Shown piece after piece: positions 7,945 through 57,700 of a DNA stretch of 64,000 nucleotides. Each line of letters opens with the position of its first letter. Within the stretch, counting starts at the first letter, position 1. Source of the stretch: an uncultured virus (IMG/VR IMGVR_UViG_3300009378_000005). Lineage: Duplodnaviria; Heunggongvirae; Uroviricota; Caudoviricetes. The position numbers and the translations under genes were made by a program. The notes under the pieces were generated by a model, which did no database searches, was not told where the DNA came from, and worked only from the letters and a program-made list of their open reading frames with translations. Location: the IMG/VR virus record IMGVR_UViG_3300009378_000005, positions 1-64,000 of that record. One strand, written 5' to 3'.

Positions 7945-10398
7945 CTAACACTTGCTATATCCGCATGATTTACATGCGACACATCCTTCCTGATATGCCA
8001 GGCTATTCTCAGACCCACAACTAGAACACGACTTATTTCCTCCGGGCTCTAAGCCATCAATAATGTAATTTTTAAGAACTCTTGCAACAACCTTTGAGAA
8101 TGAAAATAGATCAGCATCTCGATCACCCTTCTGAAGCTGCTCACAGATATAGTGAACGGGTGCGCCGTGACGAAGAGCAAGAGATATCGTCCTTGTAAAA
8201 GATGTATGATTTGGATTATCAAACACCTTCACAATATTCTTAATAACAACCTCATCTCCATTCTCACCAAATCTTAAATCATATATTGAATTCATCGTCT
8301 TTCTTAGATGCTTTACAATAATGCCTTTTCGATATTTTCTGGGAATTTCAATATACTCAGACAGACCGCCCAGAATTTCGTAAGGCTTGCTATTCATCAG
8401 ACCTATGAGTATTGTCCACTTCTCACCCTTAATTGACACATGATGAATGTCACACTCAAGATCATTTGGTCTCTTTGGCGCAGAATGTGTTGTAAACGTT
8501 TCGTTGTTATTTTTCTTATCAACTAGAACGCCTGCACGAGAACCCTCTCTATACACTGTGAAACCCTTGCAACCTGATTCCCACGCCTTCTCGTAGATCT
8601 CTCTAACAGCTTCCTTTGACACGTTAGCAGGAAGGTTGCAGGTGCTTGCTATTGAGTGATCTATCCACTTTTGTGCTGCAGCTTGGATCTCAACCCTCCG
8701 CAGCCAGTCAATTTCTGAAGCCGTTGCTTCCCAATACGGTGATTCCTCAATATTATCGTTTTCTGTTACGTCAACCCATCTCTGGACACCGTGATGATGA
8801 ACGTCATACTCGACCCACTTATCACCCATGTCGTCGACGAAGCTTGCCTCAACATTTTCACCATGAGTTATCTTTCTTCTACGAGTGTATGTTAACATAA
8901 AAACCGGCTCAATTCCTGATGATGTTTGGGTTAAAGTTGAAACTGAACCAGCGGGCGCCGTTGTAGTAAGCGCAATATTTCTCCTACCGTTTCTTTCATA
9001 TAGATCATAAAGCTCATCGCTTGATCGCAAGAGCTTTTCAAGATGTGGGTTACCTGACTCACTCGCATGAGAGAAGACAGGAAATGTACCTCTCTCTCCA
9101 GCCATTATACACGATGAGATGTGAGAATTGACGCCGAGGTTTTTGTAGATCTTTTCAACAACCTTGACAGATTTCTCTGATCCGTATCTGATGCCTAGCA
9201 TCGCAAGAGTGTCGGCGACACCTGTAACACCCAAGCCTGTTCGACGGCCTCGTAGTGCCTGTCGCTTGACTCCCTTCCATAGGTCGATCTCAATTCTCTT
9301 AATGTTTTCAGGCTCAGGATCGTTAGCTATCTTATCTATTATCTTATCAACCTGCTCTACCTCAAGATCGATCAGATCATCCATTAGCCTCTGGGACTTC
9401 TGAACAACTGTTGCAAACTTTGTCCAATTGAACCTAGCATGAGTCTCAAACGGCTTCTGAACAAACTTTGTGAGGTTCACAACCATCAACCGGCAACTGT
9501 CGCGCGGGCTCAAAATTATCTCTCCGCACGGGTTACTTGACACTGTTTTAAAGCCTACATCTGCATAGCAGTCAGGAATTGAGTTATTGATCACATTATC
9601 CCAGAAAAATATTCCAGGTTCGGCCATTGACCACGCTGAATCTACAATCTGATCCCAGACTTCTGACGCTCTTACAGTTTTTGTGATTGCTGGATTATCA
9701 GAATCAACTGGCCATTGAAGCTGATATTCTTCGTCGTTTTTGGCGGCGATCATAAATTCATCATTCAAACGAATTGAAATATTGGCACCGGTTACCTTCT
9801 TGAGATCGCGTTTTATATTGATGAACGTTTCGATCTCAGGATGACGGCAATCGATCGAAATTAATAAGGCTCCGCGTCGTCCGCCCTGGGCTACTTCTCT
9901 CGTAGAGTTTGAAAAGCGCTCCATGAAGATGCCGATGCCGTCAGTTGTTCGAGCAGCATTTGACGTTGCGAGGCCCTTTGGTCTGATATTCGAGATGTCA
10001 AAACCCACTCCTCCGCGGCGTTTCATTATCTGGACCTGCTCCTGATCAGTGTGAAGAATTCCTGCATATGAGTCAGAAGGAGAGTCGATGACAAAACAGT
10101 TTGATAATGACTGTAGCTGGTGATCATTTCCAATTCCAGACATGGGTGAACCTTGCGGAACCACCTGCCACGTCGAGAGAAGGTCATAGATCTCATCCTC
10201 AGTCATTGGGTTGGGATAATTTGACTCAATCCTTGCAAACTCAGAAGCCAGTCTTCGATGCATATCGTCTGGCGTTAACTCAAGAACATCTCCATTGCTG
10301 TCTGTTAGCGCATATTTTGTGGCAAAAACTGTTGCTGCTAAGTGATCTCCGCTAAAATAATCAACACTAGCATCAATCACTTTATCAACTTTTGCCAT
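7945..10398 (-). CDS. nrdJ: Class II (adenosylcobalamin-dependent) ribonucleotide reductase
   Basis: LSNCF, GGVGFD, QGGRRGA, NPCGEI, TAPAGSVS, KGFTVYREGSR; C-terminal accessory domain and CxxC..EGC..CxxCGYSKC ribbon; no nrdB partner seen. Confidence 0.9.
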   Translation of the reverse strand: MAKVDKVIDASVDYFSGDHLAATVFATKYALTDSNGDVLELTPDDMHRRLASEFARIESNYPNPMTEDEIYDLLSTWQVVPQGSPMSGIGNDHQLQSLSNCFVIDSPSDSYAGILHTDQEQVQIMKRRGGVGFDISNIRPKGLATSNAARTTDGIGIFMERFSNSTREVAQGGRRGALLISIDCRHPEIETFINIKRDLKKVTGANISIRLNDEFMIAAKNDEEYQLQWPVDSDNPAITKTVRASEVWDQIVDSAWSMAEPGIFFWDNVINNSIPDCYADVGFKTVSSNPCGEIILSPRDSCRLMVVNLTKFVQKPFETHARFNWTKFATVVQKSQRLMDDLIDLEVEQVDKIIDKIANDPEPENIKRIEIDLWKGVKRQALRGRRTGLGVTGVADTLAMLGIRYGSEKSVKVVEKIYKNLGVNSHISSCIMAGERGTFPVFSHASESGNPHLEKLLRSSDELYDLYERNGRRNIALTTTAPAGSVSTLTQTSSGIEPVFMLTYTRRRKITHGENVEASFVDDMGDKWVEYDVHHHGVQRWVDVTENDNIEESPYWEATASEIDWLRRVEIQAAAQKWIDHSIASTCNLPANVSKEAVREIYEKAWESGCKGFTVYREGSRAGVLVDKKNNNETFTTHSAPKRPNDLECDIHHVSIKGEKWTILIGLMNSKPYEILGGLSEYIEIPRKYRKGIIVKHLRKTMNSIYDLRFGENGDEVVIKNIVKVFDNPNHTSFTRTISLALRHGAPVHYICEQLQKGDRDADLFSFSKVVARVLKNYIIDGLEPGGNKSCSSCGSENSLAYQEGCVACKSCGYSKC

Positions 10399-11819: not shown

Positions 11820-12766
11820 GCTAAAAACATTCTATCAACATTAAACGTCTGAATTCCCTCTCTAATAAAAATTCTCATCATTTTCATCTTGTTTCTTGTA
11901 GGATCAAACATATCAATACTGTCATTTATCTTCTTTATCTGACTTGCAGATAAGTTGTTCGTGTCAAGTAGTATTAGTTTCCAATTTCTTCTAATTACAC
12001 CTTCTAAATTAAGAATGTTCAAGTATGCTTTTACTTTACTTCCAGACTCAACCATGTCACGTGAGTGCCTGATGACGTCATCAATCAAAACATCAGACTT
12101 TTCACTCATCATTGGAAACCTATTGGCAAGAGTTTTAAATCCAACACCTTGCACTCCGTCAATATTGTCTGCCGGATCTCCGCAAACTGACTTTGCAAGA
12201 CAAAAATTTTGTGGAGATATTTTAAACTTTTCTCTTACCTCTTTTGACGTCACTAATTTTTTCCAGGTTGGTGAAAATATTATTGTACTTTTATCTAGAA
12301 GCTGATAAAAATCTTTATCTGATGAAATTATTAGCTTTTTATTATCTGCATATTTGTATTTACAGATATATCCGATTACGTCATCTGCTTCACAGTCTGG
12401 AACATATATCTGACACACAGGAGTGTTATTTAACAGCTCTATGATGAGAGAAACCTGACTGTTTCTATTATTAACAGTATCTGGAAGTTCATCACCATAG
12501 AATCTATTTAGCTTTGCCGGTCTTCGCTTCTGTTTATACTCAGAGTAGATTGATCTTTTTCTAGACGACCCACCCGACTCCCAGGCAACAATTACTTTTT
12601 TAGGGTTGTATTTTTCAACCATTCCTATCATTGAATATAGAAATCCTACGACACCACCTACCTGTTCACCTGTCGATGACACAGCAGGATTTGCAACAAA
12701 GTGACGAGTAAACAGATTTAATCCATCAATAATCAGAATTAAATCACGAGACCCTGAGCCTTGCAA
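11795..12766 (-). CDS. 5'-3' exonuclease/flap endonuclease (T4 RNase H-like)
   Basis: IIDGLNL, YSEYKQKR, EADDVIG, SSDKDFYQL, GDPADNIDGVQGVGFKT. Confidence 0.9.
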   Translation of the reverse strand: MQGSGSRDLILIIDGLNLFTRHFVANPAVSSTGEQVGGVVGFLYSMIGMVEKYNPKKVIVAWESGGSSRKRSIYSEYKQKRRPAKLNRFYGDELPDTVNNRNSQVSLIIELLNNTPVCQIYVPDCEADDVIGYICKYKYADNKKLIISSDKDFYQLLDKSTIIFSPTWKKLVTSKEVREKFKISPQNFCLAKSVCGDPADNIDGVQGVGFKTLANRFPMMSEKSDVLIDDVIRHSRDMVESGSKVKAYLNILNLEGVIRRNWKLILLDTNNLSASQIKKINDSIDMFDPTRNKMKMMRIFIREGIQTFNVDRMFLACRNLEKK

Positions 12767-12769
12767 AGC

Positions 12770-13267
12770 TTAATCCTCTGGATCAACAATTAAAACGTCT
12801 TCAGATAGAGATTTCATCTCTTCATACGACTCTAAGTCAATGCTAGCTTCATCTATGCTGAATTGTTTTACCATCGCTATCTCAAGAATGTCATCGACAT
12901 ACTGGCTATATTCTGTGTTTCTCATGATATCGCAAAATTCATTTTTTCTAAATTTTTTATCTATGACGATCTCACCTGTCTTTACATCTGTTACACTCAT
13001 GGTCTTCCATCCACCTGTGCCTGCTAGCAAGATCTCCTTTCCATTAACAGTCTCAGGCCCGTGCTTTCTCAAAAGATCAAAAATTTGCTCGTGCTCTTTA
13101 ATTCCCACACCAAAGTGAATCTCAAAATTTATTTTTCTAAATGGAGGGGCAACCTTATTTTTAATTGTCTTTGCAGACACATGAATTCCGATGACATCAT
13201 CACCATCCTTTATCTGCTGTCCAGCTCCTAGCTTTATTCTAGTTGAAGCATGAAAAGGTATTGCTCT
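12770..13267 (-). CDS. recA: RecA/UvsX final exon (3' of the group I intron)
   Basis: Frame extends upstream of the annotated ORF: RAIPFHASTRIKLGAGQQIKDGDDVIGIHVSAKTIKNKVAPPFR; joins TTPGG in frame once the intron is removed. Confidence 0.9.
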   Translation of the reverse strand, partial: RAIPFHASTRIKLGAGQQIKDGDDVIGIHVSAKTIKNKVAPPFRKINFEIHFGVGIKEHEQIFDLLRKHGPETVNGKEILLAGTGGWKTMSVTDVKTGEIVIDKKFRKNEFCDIMRNTEYSQYVDDILEIAMVKQFSIDEASIDLESYEEMKSLSEDVLIVDPED

Positions 13268-14375
13268 CTTGCTAATCTACTACTTTCGTAGCAGTATGGA
13301 CTATATCTTCAAAAATTTTATTGTGTGAAATAATTTTTAGTTCGCTTTCCCAATATCTTATAACTCTAAATCCGCTTTCTTCGATTACACTTGTTTTCTT
13401 TTTATCATATTCCCATATTTCTTTTGCAAGCAGTTTCTTTCCACCAATTAAATCTTCAGAAGAAAACTTAGATGGATTTGCATGCCAATAATCACCATCG
13501 ATCTCAACAATGGTATTATACTTGGGAATATAAAAATCACAAACATATCTTTTTACAGATTTTTGAGTTTCATATTGAATATTAATCGCAACTAAAATAC
13601 TAGCAAACATTTGTTCAGGCTTTGTATTCTTAGAACATGATGGCAATATATTTTTGCTATGCCAGTTCTCCTGACGCTTGTCTGCTTCTTCAACACCATA
13701 TCTAATTACCCATCTTTCATAATTTGACTTTTTCATCCAGTCAGTCACACCTTTCTTTCCAATAAACAATCGTGGAAAGCTTTCTGGTGATTCACTAATC
13801 TTTTTCTTCATTAGTTTTGACTGTGATTCTCTATACTCTTTGCTTTGAGTGGCTTTACGACAGCTTTTCGCCTTTCTTTCTCGTATTTCTTTTGTCCCGT
13901 AAACTTTATCTGCCATTTTTTGACAGTTTTGCCTATTTTCTTCAGAATTTCGCCAATCAGAAAATCTATCAAAATTACCCATTATTGATTCTGGAAATTT
14001 TGATTTGTAGTCGGTTGTTGTCATATTATGTTTTTTAAGATGAGTATTTGTTATGGCCTTGAAGGTTTTACCGCATACTTCACACTTGTATTTTTGTCCC
14101 GCGCTCATAGGTGTTTTCTCCTTACATGTATAAATATTATGAAACGGTAAAGCTTTACCATAAAATTTATTTCTTTGTAAGGTTAATAACACTAGTCTCT
14201 GAACCTTTGACCTGTCACCAGGAAACTTGGCTGCTGATTACCCAATCCTACTTCTTTTTGACATTCACGCTCGCAATTACTCGCCACGTTGTAGTGAAGT
14301 CGGCTCTTAGGGCGTCCCAGACAATTCACGGGATGAATTTGCATTTTATACTCGTGCTTGGGAGGCAAGCATTTC
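13268..14375 (-). mobile_element. Group I self-splicing intron (IA-like, 1108 nt) in recA
   Basis: Exon ends ...GGGUGGU, which pairs with intron GCCUCCC (P1, U-G at the splice site). Core elements: P AAUUGUCUGGGA, Q AAUCAGCAG, R UCAGAGACUA, S AAGAUAUAGUCC; P3 UCCCGUG/CGCGGGA; P9 CUGCUAC-GAAA-GUAGUAG; terminal G at 13268; P10 UGCUU/GAGCA. Removal restores TTPGG|RAIPF. Confidence 0.93.
13272..14108 (-). CDS. Intron-encoded homing endonuclease (zinc finger plus Vsr/DUF559/EDxHD-like nuclease)
   Basis: AAGGAG RBS before ATG at 14108; CEVC..HLKKH finger; TKPE..CDFYIP..VEIDGDYWH..GFRVIRYWE; its 3' end overlaps the intron S/P9 elements. Confidence 0.85.
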   Translation of the reverse strand: MSAGQKYKCEVCGKTFKAITNTHLKKHNMTTTDYKSKFPESIMGNFDRFSDWRNSEENRQNCQKMADKVYGTKEIRERKAKSCRKATQSKEYRESQSKLMKKKISESPESFPRLFIGKKGVTDWMKKSNYERWVIRYGVEEADKRQENWHSKNILPSCSKNTKPEQMFASILVAINIQYETQKSVKRYVCDFYIPKYNTIVEIDGDYWHANPSKFSSEDLIGGKKLLAKEIWEYDKKKTSVIEESGFRVIRYWESELKIISHNKIFEDIVHTATKVVD

Positions 14376-14738
14376 ACCACCCGGAGTTGTGTTGTGATTA
14401 ATATGGCCATTAGCAATATAAGCATTTCCATCTGGAACTGAAACATCTACTACATTCATTTTTCCTTGTAGTTGTTTTGCATCAGGATTGTCTTTTAGCT
14501 TCGTCCACTCTCCGTCGACAAGTGTTCTATGAACTGACGTTGCATTTAAATCACCAAGCATATACGATGTATCCACTGCTGGCTTCACTACGAAATTAGT
14601 CATTGGCTTAAAGCCATCTGGACCTTCAATCATAGTACCAACATCGGAAAGATCATATTCACAAGGTGTTTCGAAATCATCAATCCCTAAAATACTTGCG
14701 TATTCAGAAAAAGTCATCTCTCTTTCAATTTGTGCCAT
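14376..14738 (-). CDS. recA: Split intein C-fragment (116 aa) plus 5-codon RecA mini-exon TTPGG
   Basis: AAGGAGA RBS then ATG at 14738; block B-like NATSVHR; block F/G VVDVSVPDGNAYIANGHINHN followed by Thr+1. Confidence 0.88.
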
Positions 14739-15483
14739 TATTATCTCCTTTGGCGTTATATTCACGGAACCTCTCCGCGAAAAGTGAGTTTTCGTCGTAA
14801 CGAATTTTAATTTTTGTTGTTTCTGGGTTTACGCAATCTGGATCTCCATAGAGAACACCTATCTTTGTTCTGACCTGATTTAATATAACAAACAGCACAT
14901 TTTGATTTGCAATCACACCTGTGATCTTTCTCATTCCTTTTGAAATTGCTCGTGCTTGAAGGCCTATTGATTCTTTATCATAGTCACCCAGAAGTTCTGC
15001 CTTTGGAGAAGAAGCAGCAACAGAATCCCACACAATAGTAACAGGAATGTCTTTATTCATTGCCTTTGCTTTCATTATTGTTGATTCAGCAATTGACAAA
15101 ACCTCTTCAGTACAATGAGTGTCAACATATACAAATCGTTTTGATACATCAACTCCAAGCATTCCTAGATTTTCAACACTTGTTGCATTCTCTGTGTCAA
15201 TATACACAACAATACCGCCCATCTTTTGAGTCGATGCAGCAATCTGTGTAGCAATATGTGACTTACCGATTGATGGCGGCCCAAATATCTCTATGATCCT
15301 CCCCTCAGGGATGCCACCGTCTCGTCTATTTGAGCATATATAGTCTAAAAGCCTTGAGCCCGTAGAGATCCATCTCTTGACATGAGTTGGTGACTCATCA
15401 CATGAAAGATTATAAGCGACTCTAGAGCCATGCTCCTTGTTGAGGGCACTTATGAGGTCAGATGTAAAGTCTTGTTTTGACAT
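14725..15483 (-). CDS. recA: RecA/UvsX N-terminal part (216 aa) fused to a short split-intein N-fragment (36 aa)
   Basis: ISTGS..GRIIEIFGPPSIGKS, YIDTEN, VWDSVAA, IGLQARAISKGMRK, NQVRTKIGVLYGDPD, then CVNPETTKIKIR (intein block A, Cys codon 14833-14835) and a stop. Confidence 0.92.
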   Translation of the reverse strand: MSKQDFTSDLISALNKEHGSRVAYNLSCDESPTHVKRWISTGSRLLDYICSNRRDGGIPEGRIIEIFGPPSIGKSHIATQIAASTQKMGGIVVYIDTENATSVENLGMLGVDVSKRFVYVDTHCTEEVLSIAESTIMKAKAMNKDIPVTIVWDSVAASSPKAELLGDYDKESIGLQARAISKGMRKITGVIANQNVLFVILNQVRTKIGVLYGDPDCVNPETTKIKIRYDENSLFAERFREYNAKGDNNGTN

Positions 15484-15522
15484 TTATCTTCCTAAGAATA
15501 AGTCCGGTATTGCCGGAACAAA

Positions 15523-16290
15523 CTATTCATCATCAATTAGATCAGCAAATGCCTCATCAATAGACCCATATCGAGTTGAATCTGCTGTTGCCGTTGCTGT
15601 TGTATCACTATTATCTGATGTCTCGTCAGACTCATCATCTTCACCCAGCCAATCATTGATAATCTTTGACAGCTCGTCGTATGACTTGCACTGAAACATA
15701 TCAGACGGATCTGGCATGTCTGTTAGCCAGGTGTTTGCCTGTGCTGAATCTGTCGACAGCATCGACTCCTTTCCTCTAGGCCTTACCTCTGTCATTGACC
15801 ACTGTCTTCCAGGCTGCTTTGTACATGTAACCTTGATATCACGACCCGTCTGCGGATCTGTAATATCTCCGTAGTCCTCGTCAAGCATCAGACCCAGAAG
15901 ATTCTGATAAACTGTCTTTCCAAATCCCCAGATCTGGACACCTTTATCTTCTTCTCCTCTGACAACTACAGGTGCATATGTTCTCATCTTCGGGTATAGC
16001 TTCTTTGCTAGCTCGTATGACTCCTTTGTGCCGTCTTCTCTAAGCTTTGTGATAAGCTCTTGGATAGGATCTGGATCGTCAAATTGGTATGGTGAAAGTA
16101 ACCCTCGTTCACTCCCAATGTTATAGTAGAACCACAGCTCCTTAAACGGTTGGCCGTCATTATCAGGAAATGATAGAAGCCTAACAGTGTGCTCCTCTCC
16201 CTCTTGTGGTCTCCAAGTTCTAGACCTGTTTTTATTTGTTCCGCTTAATCTCTCAAGCTTCTTGCGAATCGCATCAAAATCAACTGACAT
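15523..16290 (-). CDS. Single-stranded DNA-binding protein (T4 gp32-like)
   Basis: VRLLSFPD, VVVRGEEDKGVQIWGFGK, GDITDPQTGRDI, acidic C-terminal tail; AAGGAG RBS. Confidence 0.85.
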   Translation of the reverse strand: MSVDFDAIRKKLERLSGTNKNRSRTWRPQEGEEHTVRLLSFPDNDGQPFKELWFYYNIGSERGLLSPYQFDDPDPIQELITKLREDGTKESYELAKKLYPKMRTYAPVVVRGEEDKGVQIWGFGKTVYQNLLGLMLDEDYGDITDPQTGRDIKVTCTKQPGRQWSMTEVRPRGKESMLSTDSAQANTWLTDMPDPSDMFQCKSYDELSKIINDWLGEDDESDETSDNSDTTATATADSTRYGSIDEAFADLIDDE

Positions 16291-18584: not shown

Positions 18585-19766
18585 TTACACAAAATTCTCA
18601 ATCTTTACAGGAAACTTTTGTGATATTCCCCTTATCTTTACTCCCTCAGATGCGATTTTTTCTATTTTAGCTACACTTTTTTCAGGTGCATCAATAATCA
18701 TTGCATCATGAATTACAAACACTGGCAATAGATTCACATTCATGTTCTTACATCTTTCTAACAGGTATCTAAATCCAAGAAGAGACGCATCAACACCAGT
18801 AGACTGTAAATAATGATTTACATGAGATGAATCAGATAAAATTTTTCTTCCATATAGATTTTCTATAAATCCATTCTGATCATAAAAGGATTTTAGGCCC
18901 CTCTCAAGATTTCTAATTTTAAAGTATGATTTAATGGATGATAATATCATATCAGCATCGTTGTCTGGAGGAAGCTTAAGTGAAAGATTCTTTGATGTCA
19001 TTCCGTATAGGCAGCAAATTGTTGATATTTTTGATATATCTCTTGATATCTTACCATCGAATATGTTCTTGCTAATGTCATCATAGATATCATTTGGTGC
19101 TGCAATACCAGCTACGTCCAAAGCAATTCTCGGTTCAAGCGATACAAAATCAACCTGTAACAATCTCCCATCATGAAATCTAGATGAAAAAATAGACCTA
19201 TTTTCTTTTTTTAGCGTCAAGATGTTTGGACCGCTTTTTACAGTTAGCCTTCCTGTAGTTGATTTTGACTGATCGTATCTTATTTGTTGAATTAATCCAT
19301 CGATCTTTGGTCTAAATTTAAAAAGAGAGGAATGAAGATCATCTATATTCTGTAATCGACTTTTATTTACTTTTGCTCTTTTTAAATCCGTCAGAAGCTT
19401 TCTATTTTCAACAAATACATCATCGTAATACGATCCACTTATTTCATCAATTATCTTATATGCACTTCTTTTAATTCTAAAAATATGATTCTTAAATTGG
19501 TCACACGAAATAGAATATGCCCATGGAACATAGGACCTATCACTATCTTTTCTCAGAGTCTGCCACATGTTTTTTTGGCTTTCTGTGTCGAACAATGTCA
19601 GGCTTTTATCTAGCGCCAGTGCAACAGCAGAAAGATCTCGTGATCTATCATTGTCTCCCAAAGACCATACATTATCTGGAATTATCGATATCCACGAAAA
19701 GCTATCACCATCACAAAGAAGATGTCTATCTGTTCCCATCACCTTTGAAGAGATTGCAAGCTTCAT
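18585..19766 (-). CDS. Short family A DNA polymerase-like protein (polymerase motifs only)
   Basis: TTGRL..PNI, motif A DFVSLEPRI, motif B RDISKISTICCLYG, NHYLQSTG, motif C VIHDAMIID. Confidence 0.8.
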   Translation of the reverse strand: MKLAISSKVMGTDRHLLCDGDSFSWISIIPDNVWSLGDNDRSRDLSAVALALDKSLTLFDTESQKNMWQTLRKDSDRSYVPWAYSISCDQFKNHIFRIKRSAYKIIDEISGSYYDDVFVENRKLLTDLKRAKVNKSRLQNIDDLHSSLFKFRPKIDGLIQQIRYDQSKSTTGRLTVKSGPNILTLKKENRSIFSSRFHDGRLLQVDFVSLEPRIALDVAGIAAPNDIYDDISKNIFDGKISRDISKISTICCLYGMTSKNLSLKLPPDNDADMILSSIKSYFKIRNLERGLKSFYDQNGFIENLYGRKILSDSSHVNHYLQSTGVDASLLGFRYLLERCKNMNVNLLPVFVIHDAMIIDAPEKSVAKIEKIASEGVKIRGISQKFPVKIENFV

Positions 19767-19792: not shown

Positions 19793-22765
19793 CTATGTAT
19801 CGATATTTGTAGACTGAGACATTAACTTAGGTAGCACGCTTGAAAGGGTATTTCTAAATGTGTTTACTGTTCCGTTTGAAACAAACGTTAAGTTGAAACT
19901 TGTTTCAAATTTTCCACTTGATAAAGCGTGACTTATATTTGTCACTGTATAGAGGTTATCTGCTGTTGTACCGGTATTTAAATCAAGAAAAAACTGCTGT
20001 CCATACTCTATGATTGGACATCCAAGCATTGTAACACGAACAGATGCAGGAATTACCTTGACGTCTTCAATTGCAGCAGCTTGAGATGTTGATGATTGTG
20101 GATCTTTATCAACTAATGAGTTAAGTAATAGAGCATCGCCAACCGCGCCGCCTGTGTTTGCACTAAGTGTTACACTTTTTAATGCTGTAAACTGTGATCC
20201 AAAGTTTATATTGGGAACCGTTTGCTTAATAAGACGCTTAATATTTTCAGGATTAGTTTTTGATATAATCATATTATAGTCTGTTAAATTTTCACCTTTA
20301 GATGGTGACTCAACGTGGTTTTCATCCTGACTTCTTGACAAGACGTTTCTACTCTGGCCAGGATCGATTCCAACATTAGTAGCATCCATTTCTGACGTCG
20401 AAGAATCTGCGCCCTTTATTAGGCTTGATATCTCTGAGTCATTAAGTGCTGACAGTAGAAATAATTGATCTGCATGAGGCGTTGCACTCTGATCAAACAC
20501 ATGAATTCTAAGAATTACCTTATTATTATCACCAACTGCAGGAAGAGAATCCATGTAAAATTTAACAACCGGTAGTCTAAATTCTCCTGAAGCTGTGCCG
20601 CAATTGTCACTTGTGTATATTTCCTTGAGCCTTTCTTCAATTTCTTTATTTATTTTTTCAATGCTTTTTTGGGCTTCTTCACCCTGATTTGATGACTCAG
20701 AAGCTGTAGCCTTTCGCCTATATAAAGATGTTAGCCCGTAGTTCACATTAGAAGGATTTGACACGATATCTTTTATTAGAGATAAAAACCCATTAACTGT
20801 TAACGATGGATTACTTCTAATCTTATTAAGCATCTTTATGCGAAATTCCTCTATATTGACAACAAACTGTGATATGTCAAGCCTTCTAGCCGCAGCAGCC
20901 TGTGAATTAAACCTATAAAAGAACACCTGTGTCTCATCAAATCTACCTGACGAAGCAAGAGGATATCCTACAAAGCTCATTATCAGCTTTCCAAGAGAGA
21001 CAAACTCATTATTCTGAAGACCTGATTTTACACCTGGAAAAATCTCATCTGTTATCATTCTGTCATCAGGTAAAAACGGATCAGTCGCATCTTCGTGCCT
21101 CAGGGCGGCTATTTTCCCCTTTAATTCAGATTTTAGTGATTGATTTGACTCATTTAATGAAATTAGCTCTCCACCGTTACCGTCCTCTCCTATTAGCTTT
21201 GTTATGACGTTTGTCAATGCTTTTGTGCTTGTTGACGTGTTTATGTCTGCCTGTGGAGACAATATATTGTGAAATTCTTCAAATAACTCTCTTGATATCA
21301 CAGATGATGTTGATGATGCATTTCTTAAGTTTACTGTCACCTGATTTCTTATGTCTCTTAGCTGATTATCGGCAGCGTCTGTAATATCTTGAAGCTTTTT
21401 AGATAATATTGACGTCAATATTGGCTTAAATATAGAAACAGGCACAACATCTCCTGTGGCAACAGGAACATTAATCGAATCTGTTCCTCCTCGAGAGGCT
21501 AATCTTAAAGTTATTTTTACAGTTCCATCATTTCCCATTGAGTAGTTTGATGAAACTGTATGGAAAAGATTTTTTGTCTTCATGCTGTTTAAAAACTTAC
21601 CTATGGGATTATTTGAACCAGACCCACCTTCAGGATGATTCCAACCCCATTCAATTAAAACATTCGTTGTTCCAAATAGATCAATTGCAACAATTGGAGC
21701 GATATCAGCAAGCCTTGACCTATCATGAAGAGTTATATCAACTGTTGCTGTCTTTGAACTAAGCAGTGCTCTTCCCAGCCCTTCAATCTTTATATTGATT
21801 CCGTTTAATGTCATAAGAGGTTTAAACGGATCGAGAATATTTCCTGCCCGTCCTGAAAAATCTCCTCTATTAATATCAGCATTGATTAACGTCTGCGGGC
21901 TCGTAAATAGCTCCATTCCTGCCGTCGATACAGATGGGTTTATTCCAAGATCATCTCCTGCAACTCCGGCAGAAATTGTTCCAAAGAACTCATCTTTTGC
22001 ACCATCATCAAAAATCGAATTATTCATTCCAATTGAATCATTAGGATCATTTTTTGAATTCATTCCAAGAAATCTTAAGAGAGATAGCTGTCTTGTCCTT
22101 TCTCCCAAGGCTGTAGGGACAACAGACATAAACCTAAGATTTATATACGGAACACATCTTGACATCTCAACAGTTGAAATAGCATTAGAAAATAAAGTGA
22201 TGCTATCTGTATTTCTTGTGGGTATTCCCAATCTAAGATTCGGAAATACAAATGCTGACAGTGTTGGACTTTTAAATCTATCAGGTGATGATGTTGATGT
22301 GTTAACGACAGACACACCCAGCTGTGTCTCATTGCTTGATAAGCCGTCATCTGTGCTTATGATTTCTGATCGTGTCATATTCTTAACACTATCATTATCA
22401 CCCTCCATAAAAAAGGATTTTGGTGTTTTTGCTGCGCCTTTCTCAAAATAGACCTTTATAAAATTTTCTATATCACTGTCTTCACTATTTAGCTGCTCTC
22501 CGATTGTATTAAGAATATCCTTTGTAAAAAATGAGCCTTCAGTTGTATCACACAGGGCTTGCTGCAGCAGAGATACTAATTCTGTGTCTGCTTGTGATAT
22601 ATTTGACGTTCCTCCAGTTGCTATATTTGCTGCGCTTAGAATTGCTGCAGCTTGTTGATCTGAAGAAGACCCTTTTGTCATCAGAGATATGATGTCATCT
22701 CTTCCTGTTGAGGCAAAATACTTTAAAAGACCCTCAGTTGCTTCGCTTAAATAACTTATTGCCAC
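19793..22765 (-). CDS. Baseplate hub-like protein (gp27/gpD-type)
   Basis: Position in the baseplate cluster; VLIEWGW; C-terminal VTMLGCPIIEYGQQFF..LYTVTNISHALSSGKFETSFNL. Confidence 0.6.
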   Translation of the reverse strand: MAISYLSEATEGLLKYFASTGRDDIISLMTKGSSSDQQAAAILSAANIATGGTSNISQADTELVSLLQQALCDTTEGSFFTKDILNTIGEQLNSEDSDIENFIKVYFEKGAAKTPKSFFMEGDNDSVKNMTRSEIISTDDGLSSNETQLGVSVVNTSTSSPDRFKSPTLSAFVFPNLRLGIPTRNTDSITLFSNAISTVEMSRCVPYINLRFMSVVPTALGERTRQLSLLRFLGMNSKNDPNDSIGMNNSIFDDGAKDEFFGTISAGVAGDDLGINPSVSTAGMELFTSPQTLINADINRGDFSGRAGNILDPFKPLMTLNGINIKIEGLGRALLSSKTATVDITLHDRSRLADIAPIVAIDLFGTTNVLIEWGWNHPEGGSGSNNPIGKFLNSMKTKNLFHTVSSNYSMGNDGTVKITLRLASRGGTDSINVPVATGDVVPVSIFKPILTSILSKKLQDITDAADNQLRDIRNQVTVNLRNASSTSSVISRELFEEFHNILSPQADINTSTSTKALTNVITKLIGEDGNGGELISLNESNQSLKSELKGKIAALRHEDATDPFLPDDRMITDEIFPGVKSGLQNNEFVSLGKLIMSFVGYPLASSGRFDETQVFFYRFNSQAAAARRLDISQFVVNIEEFRIKMLNKIRSNPSLTVNGFLSLIKDIVSNPSNVNYGLTSLYRRKATASESSNQGEEAQKSIEKINKEIEERLKEIYTSDNCGTASGEFRLPVVKFYMDSLPAVGDNNKVILRIHVFDQSATPHADQLFLLSALNDSEISSLIKGADSSTSEMDATNVGIDPGQSRNVLSRSQDENHVESPSKGENLTDYNMIISKTNPENIKRLIKQTVPNINFGSQFTALKSVTLSANTGGAVGDALLLNSLVDKDPQSSTSQAAAIEDVKVIPASVRVTMLGCPIIEYGQQFFLDLNTGTTADNLYTVTNISHALSSGKFETSFNLTFVSNGTVNTFRNTLSSVLPKLMSQSTNIDT

Positions 22766-46863: not shown

Positions 46864-48795
46864 CTAGATCACATTGAGATCAAGCACCGTCACAGTGCCG
46901 TAGAAGTCAGCACGAACCATCTTTTTGCCGTATCGAGTCATCACTCCCTTGCGAGGCGTGAAATCCTCTGGAGCAAAGATCGTCGGTGTGACAATTAATG
47001 GTACGTACGGAGCGTAAACGTATCCTGTCTCAAGGTAGCTACCGCCCTTATAACCAACAAGAACCTTGTTGCGTGGGAAGTAGGGGTCCTTATAGACCGT
47101 GAAACGGTTGCTCAGCGTACCGACCGGAGCTGCACCGAGTGTGAACGGATTACCAACCTGACCGTCGCCGTCAAGACTGTAGTTAGGCTTGTAAAGAACT
47201 GATGCCTCGAATACCGTTGACACCTCAGGTGAGCAAACGATGAAGTTTGCAGAACCGCGAAGAGTCTTACGGTGAATCTCATTAGCGACATCGATGATCG
47301 TCTCAACTAGCGTCTCATACCACTCACGGACCGTACCTGTGAAGCTAGGACCGGAAGCTAGAGTGCTAGAAAGAGTAGCCTCTGTACCGTTTGTCTTGTT
47401 AACGAACTTACCTGGCATGCGTGACCAGTAGTAGTTAGCACCTGCTGCCTCGACCAGGAGATCGTTTAGGATCTCACGGTCGATCTCAAGAGCTACCTGC
47501 TCAGAGAGGATCTGTGTTAGCTCGACCTCAGCATCCATGCTGTGGTAGGCGTTAAGATCCTGTGCGAGCTCTGGTGACCAGCGAGCACGTAGCTTGCGTG
47601 TCTGAGCTGTTACAGCGATTGACTCGATCTTGATGTCGATCTCAGGGATCGCCGGGGAGGGCGATGACGCGAAATCAGACTCAAACGATGGAATCGTGAG
47701 AGCAGAGCCGTCAGATGTATCGATGTCAAGTGACGCAGCCAATGCGTATGATGCAGTTAGGTTAGCAACACCAGCCGGATGGGCCTTGTGAGATCCTGTA
47801 ACAACAACAAGAAGAGCGGCATTTGCAGACGTTCTTCCAATGAGAGGATCTGACGTGAACTGACCGTTAGCATATGTTCCCACCTGGTTCAGACGTCTGA
47901 CGTTAACAAGGTTCTTGCCACCCTGAACTGACTCAGGTACGGCTGAAAGACCGTTTCCGCCTCCGCCTTGATCTGAACCGAGGTCAGCATCTGTGAACAG
48001 TGAGACATCCTTAGCCTGTGTTGTATCCATAGAGTTGAACACTGAGGAGGCTAGATCAAGAATCACGAACTGGAACTCACCAGTTGTGTTCTGTGCTGTG
48101 TCATCGTCAATGAGGTTTGTTAGCTGTGGATCGAACTGTAGAAGTCGACCGTCAGTACCCGTTGATGCACAGACGCGACCATCTTGTAACGTTGAGTTAC
48201 CCTGGAAGGCACCTGATGCCAAGACGTTTGATGTCTGAACAATAGATGAGCTGTGAACCTTGGTATACGATGTTCCAACTAGATCATACTGACCACCGAC
48301 AGCCAAAGATCCGCTTTGGACACCCTTGCCTGTGGGGTTGTTGTAGATCGACTGACCCTTACCGTATGTCTGCGCATTTGCTGCACCTGCGGCACCTGTC
48401 TGGAGATTTGAATCACCGCCGATGCGGGTTCCATATGTGTAATCCAGATAGAAGAGCAGACCAGAGGGAAGGCTCATAGGCTGAATTGATACCAACTCAT
48501 TAGATACGAGACCACCGAAGACCCTGCGGACGATCGGGAAGGCGATGTTTGTGAAACCACGAAGATCGCCAGATGTTGTCATGTTTGCTGCGCCTGTTGA
48601 CAGAGAGTTTTGCTCTCTTAACAGCTGTGCAGCCTGATTCTCAAGAAGTCGAGACATGATCTCTCTATTGTGATCAGCGAGACCACGAAGAAGACCTGTT
48701 CTAGACCACTTTTCAATCAGTCGTTGACCTTCAGCACCGACATTTCTCTGCCTGATGCCTTCTGTCAACTGTTCTAGTGTAAATGATTTTGCCAT
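46864..48795 (-). CDS. Major capsid protein (T4 gp23-like)
   Basis: LLENQA, FPIVRRVF..LVSIQPMSLPSGLLFYL, TRKLRARWSPELAQDLNAYH..AEVEL..EIDREI, YAPYVPL, FTPRKGVMTRYG. Confidence 0.97.
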   Translation of the reverse strand: MAKSFTLEQLTEGIRQRNVGAEGQRLIEKWSRTGLLRGLADHNREIMSRLLENQAAQLLREQNSLSTGAANMTTSGDLRGFTNIAFPIVRRVFGGLVSNELVSIQPMSLPSGLLFYLDYTYGTRIGGDSNLQTGAAGAANAQTYGKGQSIYNNPTGKGVQSGSLAVGGQYDLVGTSYTKVHSSSIVQTSNVLASGAFQGNSTLQDGRVCASTGTDGRLLQFDPQLTNLIDDDTAQNTTGEFQFVILDLASSVFNSMDTTQAKDVSLFTDADLGSDQGGGGNGLSAVPESVQGGKNLVNVRRLNQVGTYANGQFTSDPLIGRTSANAALLVVVTGSHKAHPAGVANLTASYALAASLDIDTSDGSALTIPSFESDFASSPSPAIPEIDIKIESIAVTAQTRKLRARWSPELAQDLNAYHSMDAEVELTQILSEQVALEIDREILNDLLVEAAGANYYWSRMPGKFVNKTNGTEATLSSTLASGPSFTGTVREWYETLVETIIDVANEIHRKTLRGSANFIVCSPEVSTVFEASVLYKPNYSLDGDGQVGNPFTLGAAPVGTLSNRFTVYKDPYFPRNKVLVGYKGGSYLETGYVYAPYVPLIVTPTIFAPEDFTPRKGVMTRYGKKMVRADFYGTVTVLDLNVI

Positions 48796-54731: not shown

Positions 54732-57700
54732 TCAATCCTCCTCTGATGAATTATCGTTCTCAGAGATCACCCTTCTACGATTACTTATGGTGTTCCCAAG
54801 AGATTTTAATGACGACCTTACGTCTGATGTCATTTTATTCTGCGTTTCTATCTTATCATCTATCATGTCCATAAACTCTGCATCATCCATCTCAGACAGG
54901 GTGGGAATTGAAACCCTCACAAGTCCTCTGAGGTCTGATCTGTCTTGATATCTCTTTTGTTTCATCCCAAATGGGTGTGTGATTGAGTCAGATGCGTTAT
55001 TTCTGTCATGTGAAACGATCCGAGAATGATCTGTGTCATTATTGTTTCTACCTCTTCTACGTTTTCTCTTCTCATCCTCAACTTCAGCCGGTGTCTTATC
55101 GTCGTCGTCATCATCGTCATCAACAACCTCAGAGAGCCTATCAACCGTTCCCTGTGCTGTTATCGGAGATGTCTCATCCCTAATTGATAGAGAGCCAAGA
55201 TCAATCTCGTCGAACTCCCTGACTCCAGAAGATGTTAGAAGGTCAAGTCCAGAGCTATTTCTGTCATCTCCCGCAAGGGCTAGATCAGCTACGGCAGGCT
55301 CCTCATCTTCAGGCTCCTCAGATTCTGGACCCATTGCTAGCTCATCTGCTCCCTCTGGCTCATCACCAGGTAGGTGGACAGCCTCGACCTTGAGATCCAT
55401 CAGCCTGTCACCGAACCTTCCCTTGGAGATCTTATCTATCTCATCGTCTGTCATGTTAAAGATGTTTCTTCTTAACCACTCTCTGTCAACAAGCCCTTCT
55501 ATTCCGGATGCTGACCCTGCGATCTCGAATCTTGACCTAAACAGCTCTAGCTTCTGCTGCTGTGCGATAGTGCTTGGGTTAGATAGCTGTAATGTGAAAT
55601 CTAGAAGATCCTCACCCTCAAACCCATTGCAGAACAGGTGAATGATAGCTATCTTATTCATCTCTGCAATTATTGTTCTCTGGATTCTTGCAATGGTTCT
55701 TGAAAAACGTATGTCTTCTTGAGAGTTATGAACAAATATTTCTGCAGCGAGAGCAAAGTTATGATGTGTGTCAACAGTTATGTCATAAACCAACTCTGGC
55801 TCATCTAGCTTTACTATCTCAATATTTGCAATCTTATGGTTGGAATTAATGTTATCTTCTAATAAATTGTCTTCACAATGTGTCATCGGGCTTTCACCAA
55901 TACTTAAGTCCTCTGCATTTGTGTATAGACCATCTTTCATTAAAAACGGGTGATTATCTGTGCATTCAACAATTTTGCCATTGTCGAGTGTAACTCTATA
56001 AAGCTCAGTGACCTCTTTTGTAGCCCACGCGTTTGTGATATTTCCGAATGTTGTTCTCTTATTATCATGATCATATGAATAAACTTTTAACTTTTTGCCA
56101 TCATTAAATTCATTTACAATATCCAGAATAGAAAGTTTTCTTCCGTCAACAAGGCATATTTCTGTATTTCCTCTCAGGCATAGTGTTGCCTTTGCACCCA
56201 GGCCTTCATCATAGCCTAGATATGCCTTAGGAATCTTTAACGCTGCAAATAGCTTCTTCTGGATGTATTCGACGTCCTCGATAGCTGTTGCATTTGCCCC
56301 GCCGGCAAGTGTATCGATCTTGGTGCCTGACTCTCCGCCGCGAACGGGAAGATAATAATCCTCATCGACCGAATTCTTAATAAAAACCCCAGATTCTATT
56401 CTCTGATCATCAGAAAAGCATCTAGAATCGCCCGGAGTTGCAAAGTTATGGTAACCTTCAATTGTTACTGCACCTACATTCTCAGTATGATCTAGAACCT
56501 CTACACATACAACTTTATGATTAGCATACGAAGCAGCTTGTTTCATCTCAGATCGTGTTTTTCCAGACATCCACGTCCAGTAACAATCTTGTGAGCAAAA
56601 TGTTTTATAGCTCTTTATATCTGTATCACAGCCCCGGCATGCAGAATTTGGCTTATTAAATTTTCCGCCAGATAGATAGGTTGTATCAAATGATTTACCA
56701 GTATACCCGTGCGACTGCAGTATTCTCATAAAATCATATCGACTTATTCCAAAATGCCTGATTATGTCATTTCTAGAAATGTTTATACTGTTACTAGCAT
56801 ATATTTCTATTTCTTTCCAAGGGGCACGTAATGAAGCATAATAATCTTTTACTTCTCTTAGATTCTTGAACCCATTTTTTCTAAGTTGCTGTATGAATTG
56901 ACCTTTTGACAATTTATCATTAAATCCATTTTCAAAATTTTCATTCAGAGACCTAAGATAAGAAGTAAAATTATTGTCATTATTTAACCAGGTTCTTACC
57001 TCATATTCTCTAGCAGACGTTGTTAGTTCATTTAATGCTTGGATTACATGGTGAATTAATTCAGAATTTGTTTTAAGAGTTAGAGCATTTACTCTTTTTT
57101 CTCTTATTTCACTATTTTGCCACATCTTTGTATAAATTTCTGGATTTAGCTTTCCAGCTTCCCAAAGATTGATCATGTTTTTTCTAGATGCTTTTCTTCC
57201 AGCGGACGACTTGTTTCTCTCTACGCAGTAATCTCCGTGAATCTTGTGATGTTCTTTCCATGTGCATGGATGCAAGTTATTAGGAGAGTTATTTGTTTTA
57301 TCGAAATCTACATGATGAACAACTTTTCCTTTAATTGCTTCAAAACCAGATTCAGCTATTATATTTGCTCGATGTGTATAAACATAATTTTGTGAATATG
57401 GATCATAGATCATTTCATATCCATCAATTACTCGCTTATCATCACCTTTCTTTGACCAGCGCTTGTATAGTGGCATCAATGCATCATTTTCGCTTAGATT
57501 CTGTGCTTCACAGTATTCTCCATTACGAAGCATGAATTTATGATCAGGAGTTACATCAAGCCATTTATTGTTATCTAAATGAACCCTTACTAATTTTGCA
57601 TTTTCTTTTGTTATCCCCGCCCACATTACGCGGCCAGGAGCTAATTTCTTTCCATCGCGATCAATAGAATATACCCATTGATCTTTTTGGCCGTTACTTC

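Follow-up and report, generated by a model that had tools for sequence, protein, structure and literature searches.

The window analysed in this study is a stretch of 64,000 nucleotides (nt) taken from a 76-kb IMG/VR virus record (IMGVR_UViG_3300009378_000005), and it contains a recA gene in three separate coding pieces on the minus strand, with a putative split intein between the first and second pieces and a putative group I intron between the second and third (Table 1). The first cistron is a 252-codon open reading frame (ORF; 15483..14725, minus strand) that encodes RecA as far as GVLYGDPD and then a 36-residue tail beginning with cysteine, the intein N-part (IntN). The second cistron starts at an ATG that overlaps the end of the first by 13 nt, and it encodes the intein C-part (IntC) followed by only five RecA residues, TTPGG, which form a micro-exon directly in front of the intron. 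The remaining third of RecA is encoded by exon 2, the reading frame of which contains no ATG, GTG or TTG across its first 29 codons. Both elements interrupt the stretch of recA that encodes the L2 loop, which binds single-stranded DNA (ssDNA). This three-piece gene had been described in an earlier reading made from the letters of the window (the sequence-only reading), and comparison with the ORF list and the sequence found all of its coordinates and counts correct to the base.

Table 1. Features of the interrupted recA locus, and one further gene, in the window
Feature	Position	Strand	Remarks
recA N-extein	14836..15483	-	216 codons; C-terminal end GVLYGDPD; Pfam RecA (PF00154) E 3.6e-43, profile positions 7-202
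Intein N-part (IntN), putative	14835..14728	-	36 codons, Cys1 first; TGA at 14727..14725
Shine-Dalgarno sequence AAGGAGA of the second cistron	14750..14744	-	spacing of 5 nt to the ATG at 14738
Intein C-part (IntC), putative	14738..14391	-	116 codons, ending HN
Micro-exon TTPGG	14390..14376	-	15 nt; Thr is the predicted intein +1 nucleophile; last 7 nt are the exon strand of P1
Group I intron, predicted	14375..13268	-	1108 nt
P10 guide UGCUU	14367..14371	-	pairs with exon 2 bases 13266..13262 (5 bp; read from the sequences)
Internal guide sequence GCCUCCC	14360..14366	-	pairs with exon bases 14382..14376, GGGUGGU (P1)
In-frame TAA	14348..14346	-	nine codons into the intron; stops translation of unspliced RNA
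Conserved core element GUUCAGAGACUA, P7 5' strand	14193..14204	-	partner GAAGAUAUAGUCC at 13310..13298
Hairpin between P7 and P3'	14104..14192	-	AAGG of the endonuclease AAGGAG pairs with CCUU; minimum free energy -18.5 kcal/mol, z -3.4
Homing endonuclease ORF, predicted	14108..13272	-	278 amino acids, 837 nt; N-terminal C2H2/MucR-like zinc finger, C-terminal Vsr-like nuclease
P9 hairpin CUGCUAC-GAAA-GUAGUAG	13277..13294	-	directly 5' of the 3' splice site
recA exon 2	13267..12770	-	165 codons and stop; Pfam RecA positions 206-261, E 7.3e-11
Ribonucleotide reductase large-subunit gene	7945..10398		uninterrupted

Computational joining of the three pieces yields a protein of 386 amino acids (aa), as the sequence-only reading had proposed. 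It aligns colinearly with the RecA of a related locus, L027, which is uninterrupted and has 390 aa, and no gap falls at either junction. The two Pfam RecA matches abut, the N part ending at profile position 202 and exon 2 beginning at 206, and the window N-extein is 94% identical to the L027 protein across its last 210 residues. The exteins are intact, with neither stops nor frameshifts. These findings bear on the possibility that selfish elements have overrun recA and left a pseudogene in decay, from which no functional RecA is made. Some relatives do carry three interruptions within 12 codons, but an N part so close to uninterrupted relatives, the invariance of all the intein catalytic residues, the compensatory changes by which the intron helices maintain their pairing, and the persistence of the arrangement across many diverged phages make decay of the gene very unlikely.

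The fold of the intein was assessed on a contiguous homologue, the L013 intein (L013:3893-4336), which is 70% identical to the window IntC, rather than on the two halves from the window. The AlphaFold2 model of this homologue, built on a 35-row alignment, has a pLDDT of 93.8 and a pTM of 0.88. When it was compared with the Protein Data Bank (PDB) using Foldseek, the matches listed, down to rank 50, were all inteins or bacterial intein-like (BIL) domains of the HINT fold, and the top match was the atypically split intein VidaL (6vgv; E 3e-5, TM-score 0.60). The model predicts that this intein family adopts the HINT fold. In an alignment with the contiguous inteins of L013 and L023, the window IntN corresponds to their first ~36 residues. 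In the L013 model this region consists of a strand (residues 8-13) and a helix (residues 18-27), and the natural split site falls in the loop that follows the helix (residues ~28-40), which of all the loops is modelled with the least confidence. Cys1 is invariant in all eight IntN rows, one histidine, one aspartate and the terminal His-Asn are invariant in the 35-row alignment, and threonine occupies the +1 position. We take the invariant histidine to be that of block B and the aspartate to be that of block F. With these assignments the catalytic residue set of a class-1 intein (Cys1, block B His, block F Asp, HN and Thr+1) appears complete, and the inteins are best described as a new, previously unannotated RecA family of putative atypically split inteins.

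In the public sequencing runs X4 and X5, which come from other samples, contigs span the IntN/IntC junction and show no indel there; the few substitutions that they carry mark a variant allele that is likewise split. The sequence-only reading had allowed that a single indel might join IntN and IntC into one contiguous intein, and no such indel is present in these contigs. Viral contigs were searched with the second cistron, which gave 21 loci at 46-100% identity, and with the first cistron, which gave 80 loci. Among these relatives the split is kept at IntC identities of 46-88%, in five junction designs that each comprise a stop and a new start. The two frames may overlap or meet as TAA-c-ATG; a short spacer may part them, bringing its own GGAGG or AAGGG; the new start may be a TTG; or a whole gene for an endonuclease may stand between the halves. 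A start with AAGGAG or GGAGG upstream is preserved in five differently built junctions of relatives. In the protein databases there are 29 clusters of stand-alone IntC relatives of 120-151 aa, unnamed or labelled 'hypothetical' and none with a Pfam domain; all 23 that were aligned end no more than nine residues past NHN-T[TS]PGG. A wider protein search without a word index gave 77 clusters at 50% identity. In a Pfam scan of 69 of them (the seven longest and P0014 were left out), the host protein was RecA in 57, with the intein at profile positions ~197-203, and the 12 clusters without a RecA match were short or truncated ORFs with IntC only, plus P0066 (300 aa).

Contiguous inteins of the same family are found in L013 and L014 (148 aa) and in L023 (165 aa), and the existence of these homologues means that the window halves are parts of one intein. 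They also raise the question of whether the apparent split is no more than an artefact, or a frameshift of recent date, in a mini-intein that is really contiguous and splices in cis, particularly as the frames overlap by 13 nt and a single indel could fuse them. Against this stand the indel-free contigs and the split variant allele, the retention of the split through unrelated junction designs with their own starts and ribosome sites, the 29 stand-alone IntC clusters, and the position of the break, in the low-confidence loop after the first helix, where published natural atypical split inteins are cut (PMC13014065). We consider a frameshift origin exceedingly unlikely. The window intein is best explained as naturally split: its two halves, predicted to be translated separately, with IntN far shorter than IntC, and conserved as such, match what is expected of a natural atypical split intein.

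The split site itself varies among relatives. In L062 an IntN of just 17 aa is followed by a free-standing endonuclease gene and then by IntC, and in P0048 a Vsr-like endonuclease is fused in frame with IntC and the C-extein.

The 1108-nt insert downstream of the micro-exon was compared with eight related introns, giving nine in total. L005 and L006 have ORF-less homologues of it at this site, and these score 79.2 and 70.9 bits on the Rfam group I intron model RF00028 (cutoff 50), and the window core (the first 186 nt and the last ~50) is 90% identical to L005 and 87% identical to L006. Furthermore, blastn with the core finds group I introns already known from phages, among them that of Twort nrdE (76.6% over 106 nt). 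A U.G pair at the 5' splice site and a terminal G are found in 9/9 introns. P10 covaries, with both strands altered and pairing retained in L016 and L062, and P9 contains compensatory changes in six of its seven pairs; the two strands of P7 are invariant in all nine introns and so carry no covariation information. When RNAalifold was applied to the nine introns, with the ORFs excised computationally and replaced by a GAAA loop, it recovered P1, P2, P3, the P4-P6 domain, P8 and P9, and compensatory double changes were found in 23 of the 65 predicted pairs, including a change of C-G to U-A in P3 in three lineages and changes of two P8 pairs in L007.

The boundaries of the element are fixed by L021, the intron-less sister of L015, to which it is identical at 270 of 300 nt upstream and 230 of 300 nt downstream. 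L021 reads through cleanly with GGTGGT-ATGGCA, which corresponds to the predicted ligated junction. One X4 contig joins position 13330 to 14190 and omits 859 nt, showing that a single community contains, beside the allele with the endonuclease, an ORF-less allele of the intron of the L005/L006 type. Taken together, these comparisons identify the insert as a real group I intron with fixed boundaries, and self-splicing is predicted for it.

The ORF inside the intron matches the Pfam families Vsr (33.5 bits, cutoff 27) and DUF559 (39.1 bits, cutoff 20.6), and among PDB sequences it matches Vsr (1cw0, E 1.9e-4) and 3r3p, a 'Mobile intron protein' (E 0.021). Related proteins of cultured phages bear the annotation 'group I intron-associated VSR homing endonuclease'. 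It is predicted to encode a Vsr-like (EDxHD) homing endonuclease of the I-Bth0305I type within a mobile intron. The ORF occupies the P8 loop: its opening codons form the P3' and P8 strands, and its closing codons form P8', P7' and P9. Endonuclease invasions of introns have been described that overlap the core in a like manner (PMC2677866). The hairpin that separates P7 from P3' encloses the ribosome site of the endonuclease, the start codon of which lies directly next to P3', so translation of the endonuclease and folding of the intron should exclude each other. The same two-stem hairpin is the minimum-free-energy fold in all six introns that were folded singly, although the stem sequences differ. 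RNAalifold run on a MAFFT alignment of the hairpin, which is one column off on the 3' side, recovered only the four-pair inner stem and no covariation.

In seven of the nine introns (L005, L006, L007, L010, L015, L016 and L058) the 3' end is an ATG in frame with exon 2, so that, in principle, translation of a free C-fragment could begin on an unspliced RNA; the introns of the window and of L062 end in CAAG. The C-terminal third of RecA might, by analogy with a fragmented phage reductase, be translated separately and join the rest non-covalently, and splicing of the intron would then be unneeded. There is a precedent in the split phage nrdA, the product of which assembles through protein interaction domains (PMC3045599), and the terminal ATG of most related introns fits. 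But the CAAG end of the window intron and the lack of a start codon through 29 codons of exon 2 speak against a free fragment here; moreover, the break would fall within the L2 loop and leave a five-residue stub on IntC, and a covarying, conserved catalytic core would be pointless were splicing dispensable. We give this explanation hardly any credence.

The sequence-only reading had proposed that RecA matures in two steps, RNA self-splicing followed by protein trans-splicing. This agrees with the anatomy established here, namely a real group I intron, a natural split intein and an exon 2 without a start, from which both reactions are predicted. It is very probable, in our judgement, that two mobile elements, each self-splicing and independent of the other, are inserted in the L2-loop part of recA: a split class-1 mini-intein and, 15 nt further on, a group I intron. 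The mini-intein would lie between GDPD and TTPGG and be split after its first helix. The first cistron would give the N-extein with the 36-aa IntN, and the second, probably coupled in translation to the first through their overlap, the 116-aa IntC with the remainder of RecA. In the transcript the intron would fold, its guide GCCUCCC forming P1 with the last exon bases, and splicing would join GGU to AGA, after which a ribosome could read IntC-TTPGG and on through the 165 residues of exon 2. An RNA left unspliced would give only IntC-TTPGG and nine further residues, and any RNA from which the endonuclease is translated would presumably be kept from folding its intron. Finally, IntN and IntC would associate and trans-splice by means of Cys1, the block B His, the block F Asp, HN and Thr+1, leaving a 386-aa RecA as the end product.

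Several results weigh against this proposal. Among the public sequencing runs listed as containing the stretch, none was of RNA. Rfam does not report the window intron, either at E <= 1 in positions 12000-16000, where it gave only a chance match to a small RNA, or at the gathering threshold in the whole window. Because Rfam misses the window copy, the identification of the intron was based on homology to the ORF-less relatives and on covariation. With the Pfam profile Intein_splicing (PF14890; cutoff 35.8) IntC scores 13.7 bits and the contiguous homologues 14.0 and 12.8, and a sequence search of PDB chains gave no intein, only chance matches to lipoproteins; because both profiles and PDB sequences fail, it was the predicted fold of a homologue and the motif residues that led to the intein call. 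The hairpin has weak z-scores in three of the six introns (-2.1, -1.4 and -0.6). In addition, the gap of 15 nt brings ribosomes to the intron almost immediately after IntC, which might hinder its folding.

The presence of the two elements side by side does not mean that they depend on one another. The intron occurs without the intein in an otherwise uninterrupted recA in L110, L111 and L114, and L106 has it with only a different intein farther upstream; a scan for the exon-intron junction pattern found 22 loci, of which 18 carry this intein, three the intron alone and one another intein. Conversely, the intein occurs without the intron in 5/23 intein loci (L013/14, L021/22 and L023), and in roughly 27 database clusters IntC is, by length and Pfam match, fused directly to the C-extein. 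The sequence-only reading had called the arrangement nested, and this part of it needs correction: the elements do adjoin in the L2 region, but nesting overstates their relation, each being found without the other.

A closer link between them is nevertheless conceivable. In a linked cassette, or by collaborative homing, the endonuclease-less split intein would spread by co-conversion whenever the endonuclease of the neighbouring intron cuts an empty recA, and intein and intron would travel as one block. The intein halves in the window overlap and hold no endonuclease gene, and of the loci retrieved with the N-extein, 72 alleles are uninterrupted and none of these contains the intron, which is found in 18 of the 23 intein-bearing loci of both searches combined. 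An obligate cassette, which these last figures suggested, was considered and is ruled out by the loci with the intron alone in the pattern scan. The predominance of loci with both elements in that scan is a further point for joint transfer, and so is the micro-exon, which is near-invariant at synonymous sites in the intron-bearing alleles among 26 rows (24 of them intein-bearing loci), as against 52 codon variants among 65 uninterrupted alleles; however, its role as a strand of P1 would explain this invariance equally well.

An N-extein tree of 96 rows was also examined (L007, which has too little N-extein, was omitted). On this tree, which is weakly supported and has three starred branches, the presence of the intein requires at least six changes and that of the intron at least eight, and placing all intein-bearing rows in one group is rejected (p-AU 0.009). 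Such a scattered distribution would also be expected of a travelling block. The exteins and flanks of the window, however, are closer to those of uninterrupted relatives than to those of other carriers. The nearest relatives of the N- and C-exteins are uninterrupted, with 94% and 67% identity to L027 compared with 79-86% and 45-61% to other element-bearing loci, and the two exon flanks agree with uninterrupted relatives at 43-46 and 48-51 of 60 nt, compared with 39-42 and 37-46 in other element-bearing alleles. No co-conversion tract was seen in an ungapped comparison of the flanks, which is a weak test that breaks down more than 60 nt downstream at several loci owing to indels. The intron core, conserved at 71-99% of nucleotides, varies far less than the intein, conserved at 43-98% of amino acids, a difference that suggests either separate histories or different constraint. 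Considering both sides, including the loci with one element only, we think joint travel as a block rather unlikely. Our own reading is that the intein and the intron are two independent mobile elements at adjoining sites, though the intein, which lacks an endonuclease, may hitch-hike when the intron homes.

Relatives in marine viromes show every state of the site: no insert, a contiguous intein, a split intein alone, an intron alone, and both. Four of them, which fall in one well-supported clade of N-exteins with zero-length end branches for L103 and L015, form an allelic series, in which L103 is empty, L021 has the split intein only, L015 has the split intein and the intron, and L016 has two split inteins and the intron. 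In L016 (L016:582-4884), with a layout shared by L017-L020, recA is divided into four coding segments. The first encodes the N-extein as far as KIG and then an 18-aa IntN(a) that begins with cysteine. A free-standing gene for a 343-aa Vsr-like endonuclease lies between the halves of this upstream intein, and it is followed by a 180-aa ORF that consists of IntC(a) ending in SHN, the seven RecA residues TMYGDPT, and an IntN(b) of the window's intein type. In the 3' part, IntC(b)-TTPGG has an ORF to itself, and the endonuclease-bearing intron and exon 2 follow. The second split intein of these loci, (a), is thus seven residues upstream of the intein of the window type. P0039 and P0047 have the upstream split intein together with a contiguous downstream intein, and P0045 has, in addition, an intein in the P-loop.

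These arrangements could mean that the L2 stretch of recA is a landing pad with three sites, for an intein 'a' after KIG, an intein 'b' after GDPx and an intron after TTPGG, where split inteins without an endonuclease persist through collaborative homing with the neighbouring intron and where stacking leads to a gene of four segments and three polypeptides. We put this forward tentatively, as an idea with less in its favour than against it. If it holds, RecA of L016-L020 would need two orthogonal trans-splicing reactions in addition to RNA splicing, the window would represent a two-step stage, and the paired inteins with their short IntN would be a ready-made orthogonal pair for the ligation of proteins from three pieces.

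Both elements are of known kinds, and it is their spacing of 15 bases that is unusual. Among published group I introns, the nearest to that of the window lies in recA of Bacillus phage 0305phi8-36 and carries the Vsr-like endonuclease I-Bth0305I; the recA intron of B. anthracis/B. cereus belongs with it (PMC2677866, PMC3239194). It shares with the window the host gene, the L2-loop region and the association of a Vsr-like endonuclease with a group I intron, but differs in several respects. In 0305phi8-36 (NC_009760) the FGD codons are the last of exon 1, which places the insertion site 21 nt upstream of that in the window; the endonuclease ORF lies in the P1 loop of the Bacillus intron (PMC2677866) and in the P8 loop of that in the window; the DNA-binding part of the endonuclease consists of NUMOD motifs as described for Bacillus, and of a C2H2/MucR-like zinc finger in the window; and the Bacillus intron has no accompanying intein. 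The sequence-only reading had given both split inteins and group I introns as known from phage recombinase genes. This holds for the recA group I intron, whereas the full-text literature searched, which excludes most subscription journals, yielded no account of a split intein in recA or uvsX, nor of the two kinds of element combined in either gene.

Natural atypical split inteins include AceL-TerL (25/104 aa), GOS-TerL (37/115 aa), VidaL (16-aa IntN) and PolB16 (15 aa) (PMC13014065, PMC11766414), with IntN lengths in the range 15-37 aa (PMC13014065). The 36/116 aa of the window almost match those of GOS-TerL (PMC11766414), and the split after the first helix corresponds to the S2 position assigned to AceL-TerL and GOS-TerL (PMC13014065). 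The predicted class-1 residue set, dependent on Cys1, is likewise shared with this group, to which VidaL, the top structural match of the homologue model, belongs. The host protein is RecA in the window, whereas a terminase, helicase or polymerase is given for the known atypical split inteins in these sources. The window intein differs further from them in having no detectable sequence similarity to them, a threonine at +1, and an intron 15 nt away.

The locus also resembles the fractured genes described from marine metagenomic data (Dassa et al. 2009, PMC2677866), in which the halves of a split intein are separated by a free-standing endonuclease gene. In both cases a DNA-metabolism gene of marine phages is split by an intein and the Vsr-like endonuclease family is involved, and L016-L020 and L062 have exactly the fractured-gene layout at the same recA site. 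In the window itself, the cistrons overlap and no gene lies between the halves, which corresponds to the state described in that paper as 'endonuclease lost' (PMC2677866). The presumed block B His is in IntC, as read from the alignments, which makes the split position atypical in comparison with the fractured genes. RecA is not named as a fractured host in the passages of PMC2677866 consulted, where UvsX appears only as a neighbouring ORF, although its supplements may list further hosts.

The reductase genes of Bacillus prophages hold both introns and inteins. As is predicted for recA in the window, a single essential gene needs RNA splicing and protein splicing there. Their inteins are contiguous, splice in cis and are far from the introns, whereas the intein of the window is split and 15 nt from the intron.

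The recA of the window is a natural gene whose product is predicted to need two self-splicing chemistries within five codons, in the ssDNA-binding loop of RecA. The allelic series in near-identical backgrounds makes questions of homing testable, such as whether neighbouring elements interfere or cooperate, and how genes become fractured. Inteins of this type, with Thr at +1 and an IntN of 36 aa, or of 17-18 aa as in some of the relatives, are sought by protein chemists for semisynthesis and labelling. Should the upstream split intein of the relatives be active and orthogonal, the combination would provide a natural template for one-pot ligation of three fragments.

Almost every gene of the window lies on the minus strand. 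The genes for a Gp23 capsid protein, a Gp20 portal protein, a sheath protein, a gp32-like protein, a DnaB-like protein, a 5'-3' exonuclease and ribonucleotide reductase, as identified from their sequences, mark the source as a T4-like marine phage. The Gp23 major capsid ORF (46864-48795, minus strand; 643 aa) matches Pfam in two stretches, the best from residue 369, which suggests a big insert or an N-terminal extension. A family A DNA polymerase domain was found only in the 393-aa member of a pair of adjoining ORFs (18585-19766 and 19793-22765, minus strand), and the 990-aa ORF upstream of it has no Pfam match even at E 0.01; the pair may encode a split or highly divergent polymerase. The T4-like portal gene (54732-59696, minus strand) is one ORF of 1654 codons in which Pfam finds Intein_splicing in three stretches (E 1.4e-45) and HNH_3 in two, which points to several contiguous inteins in another gene of the same phage.

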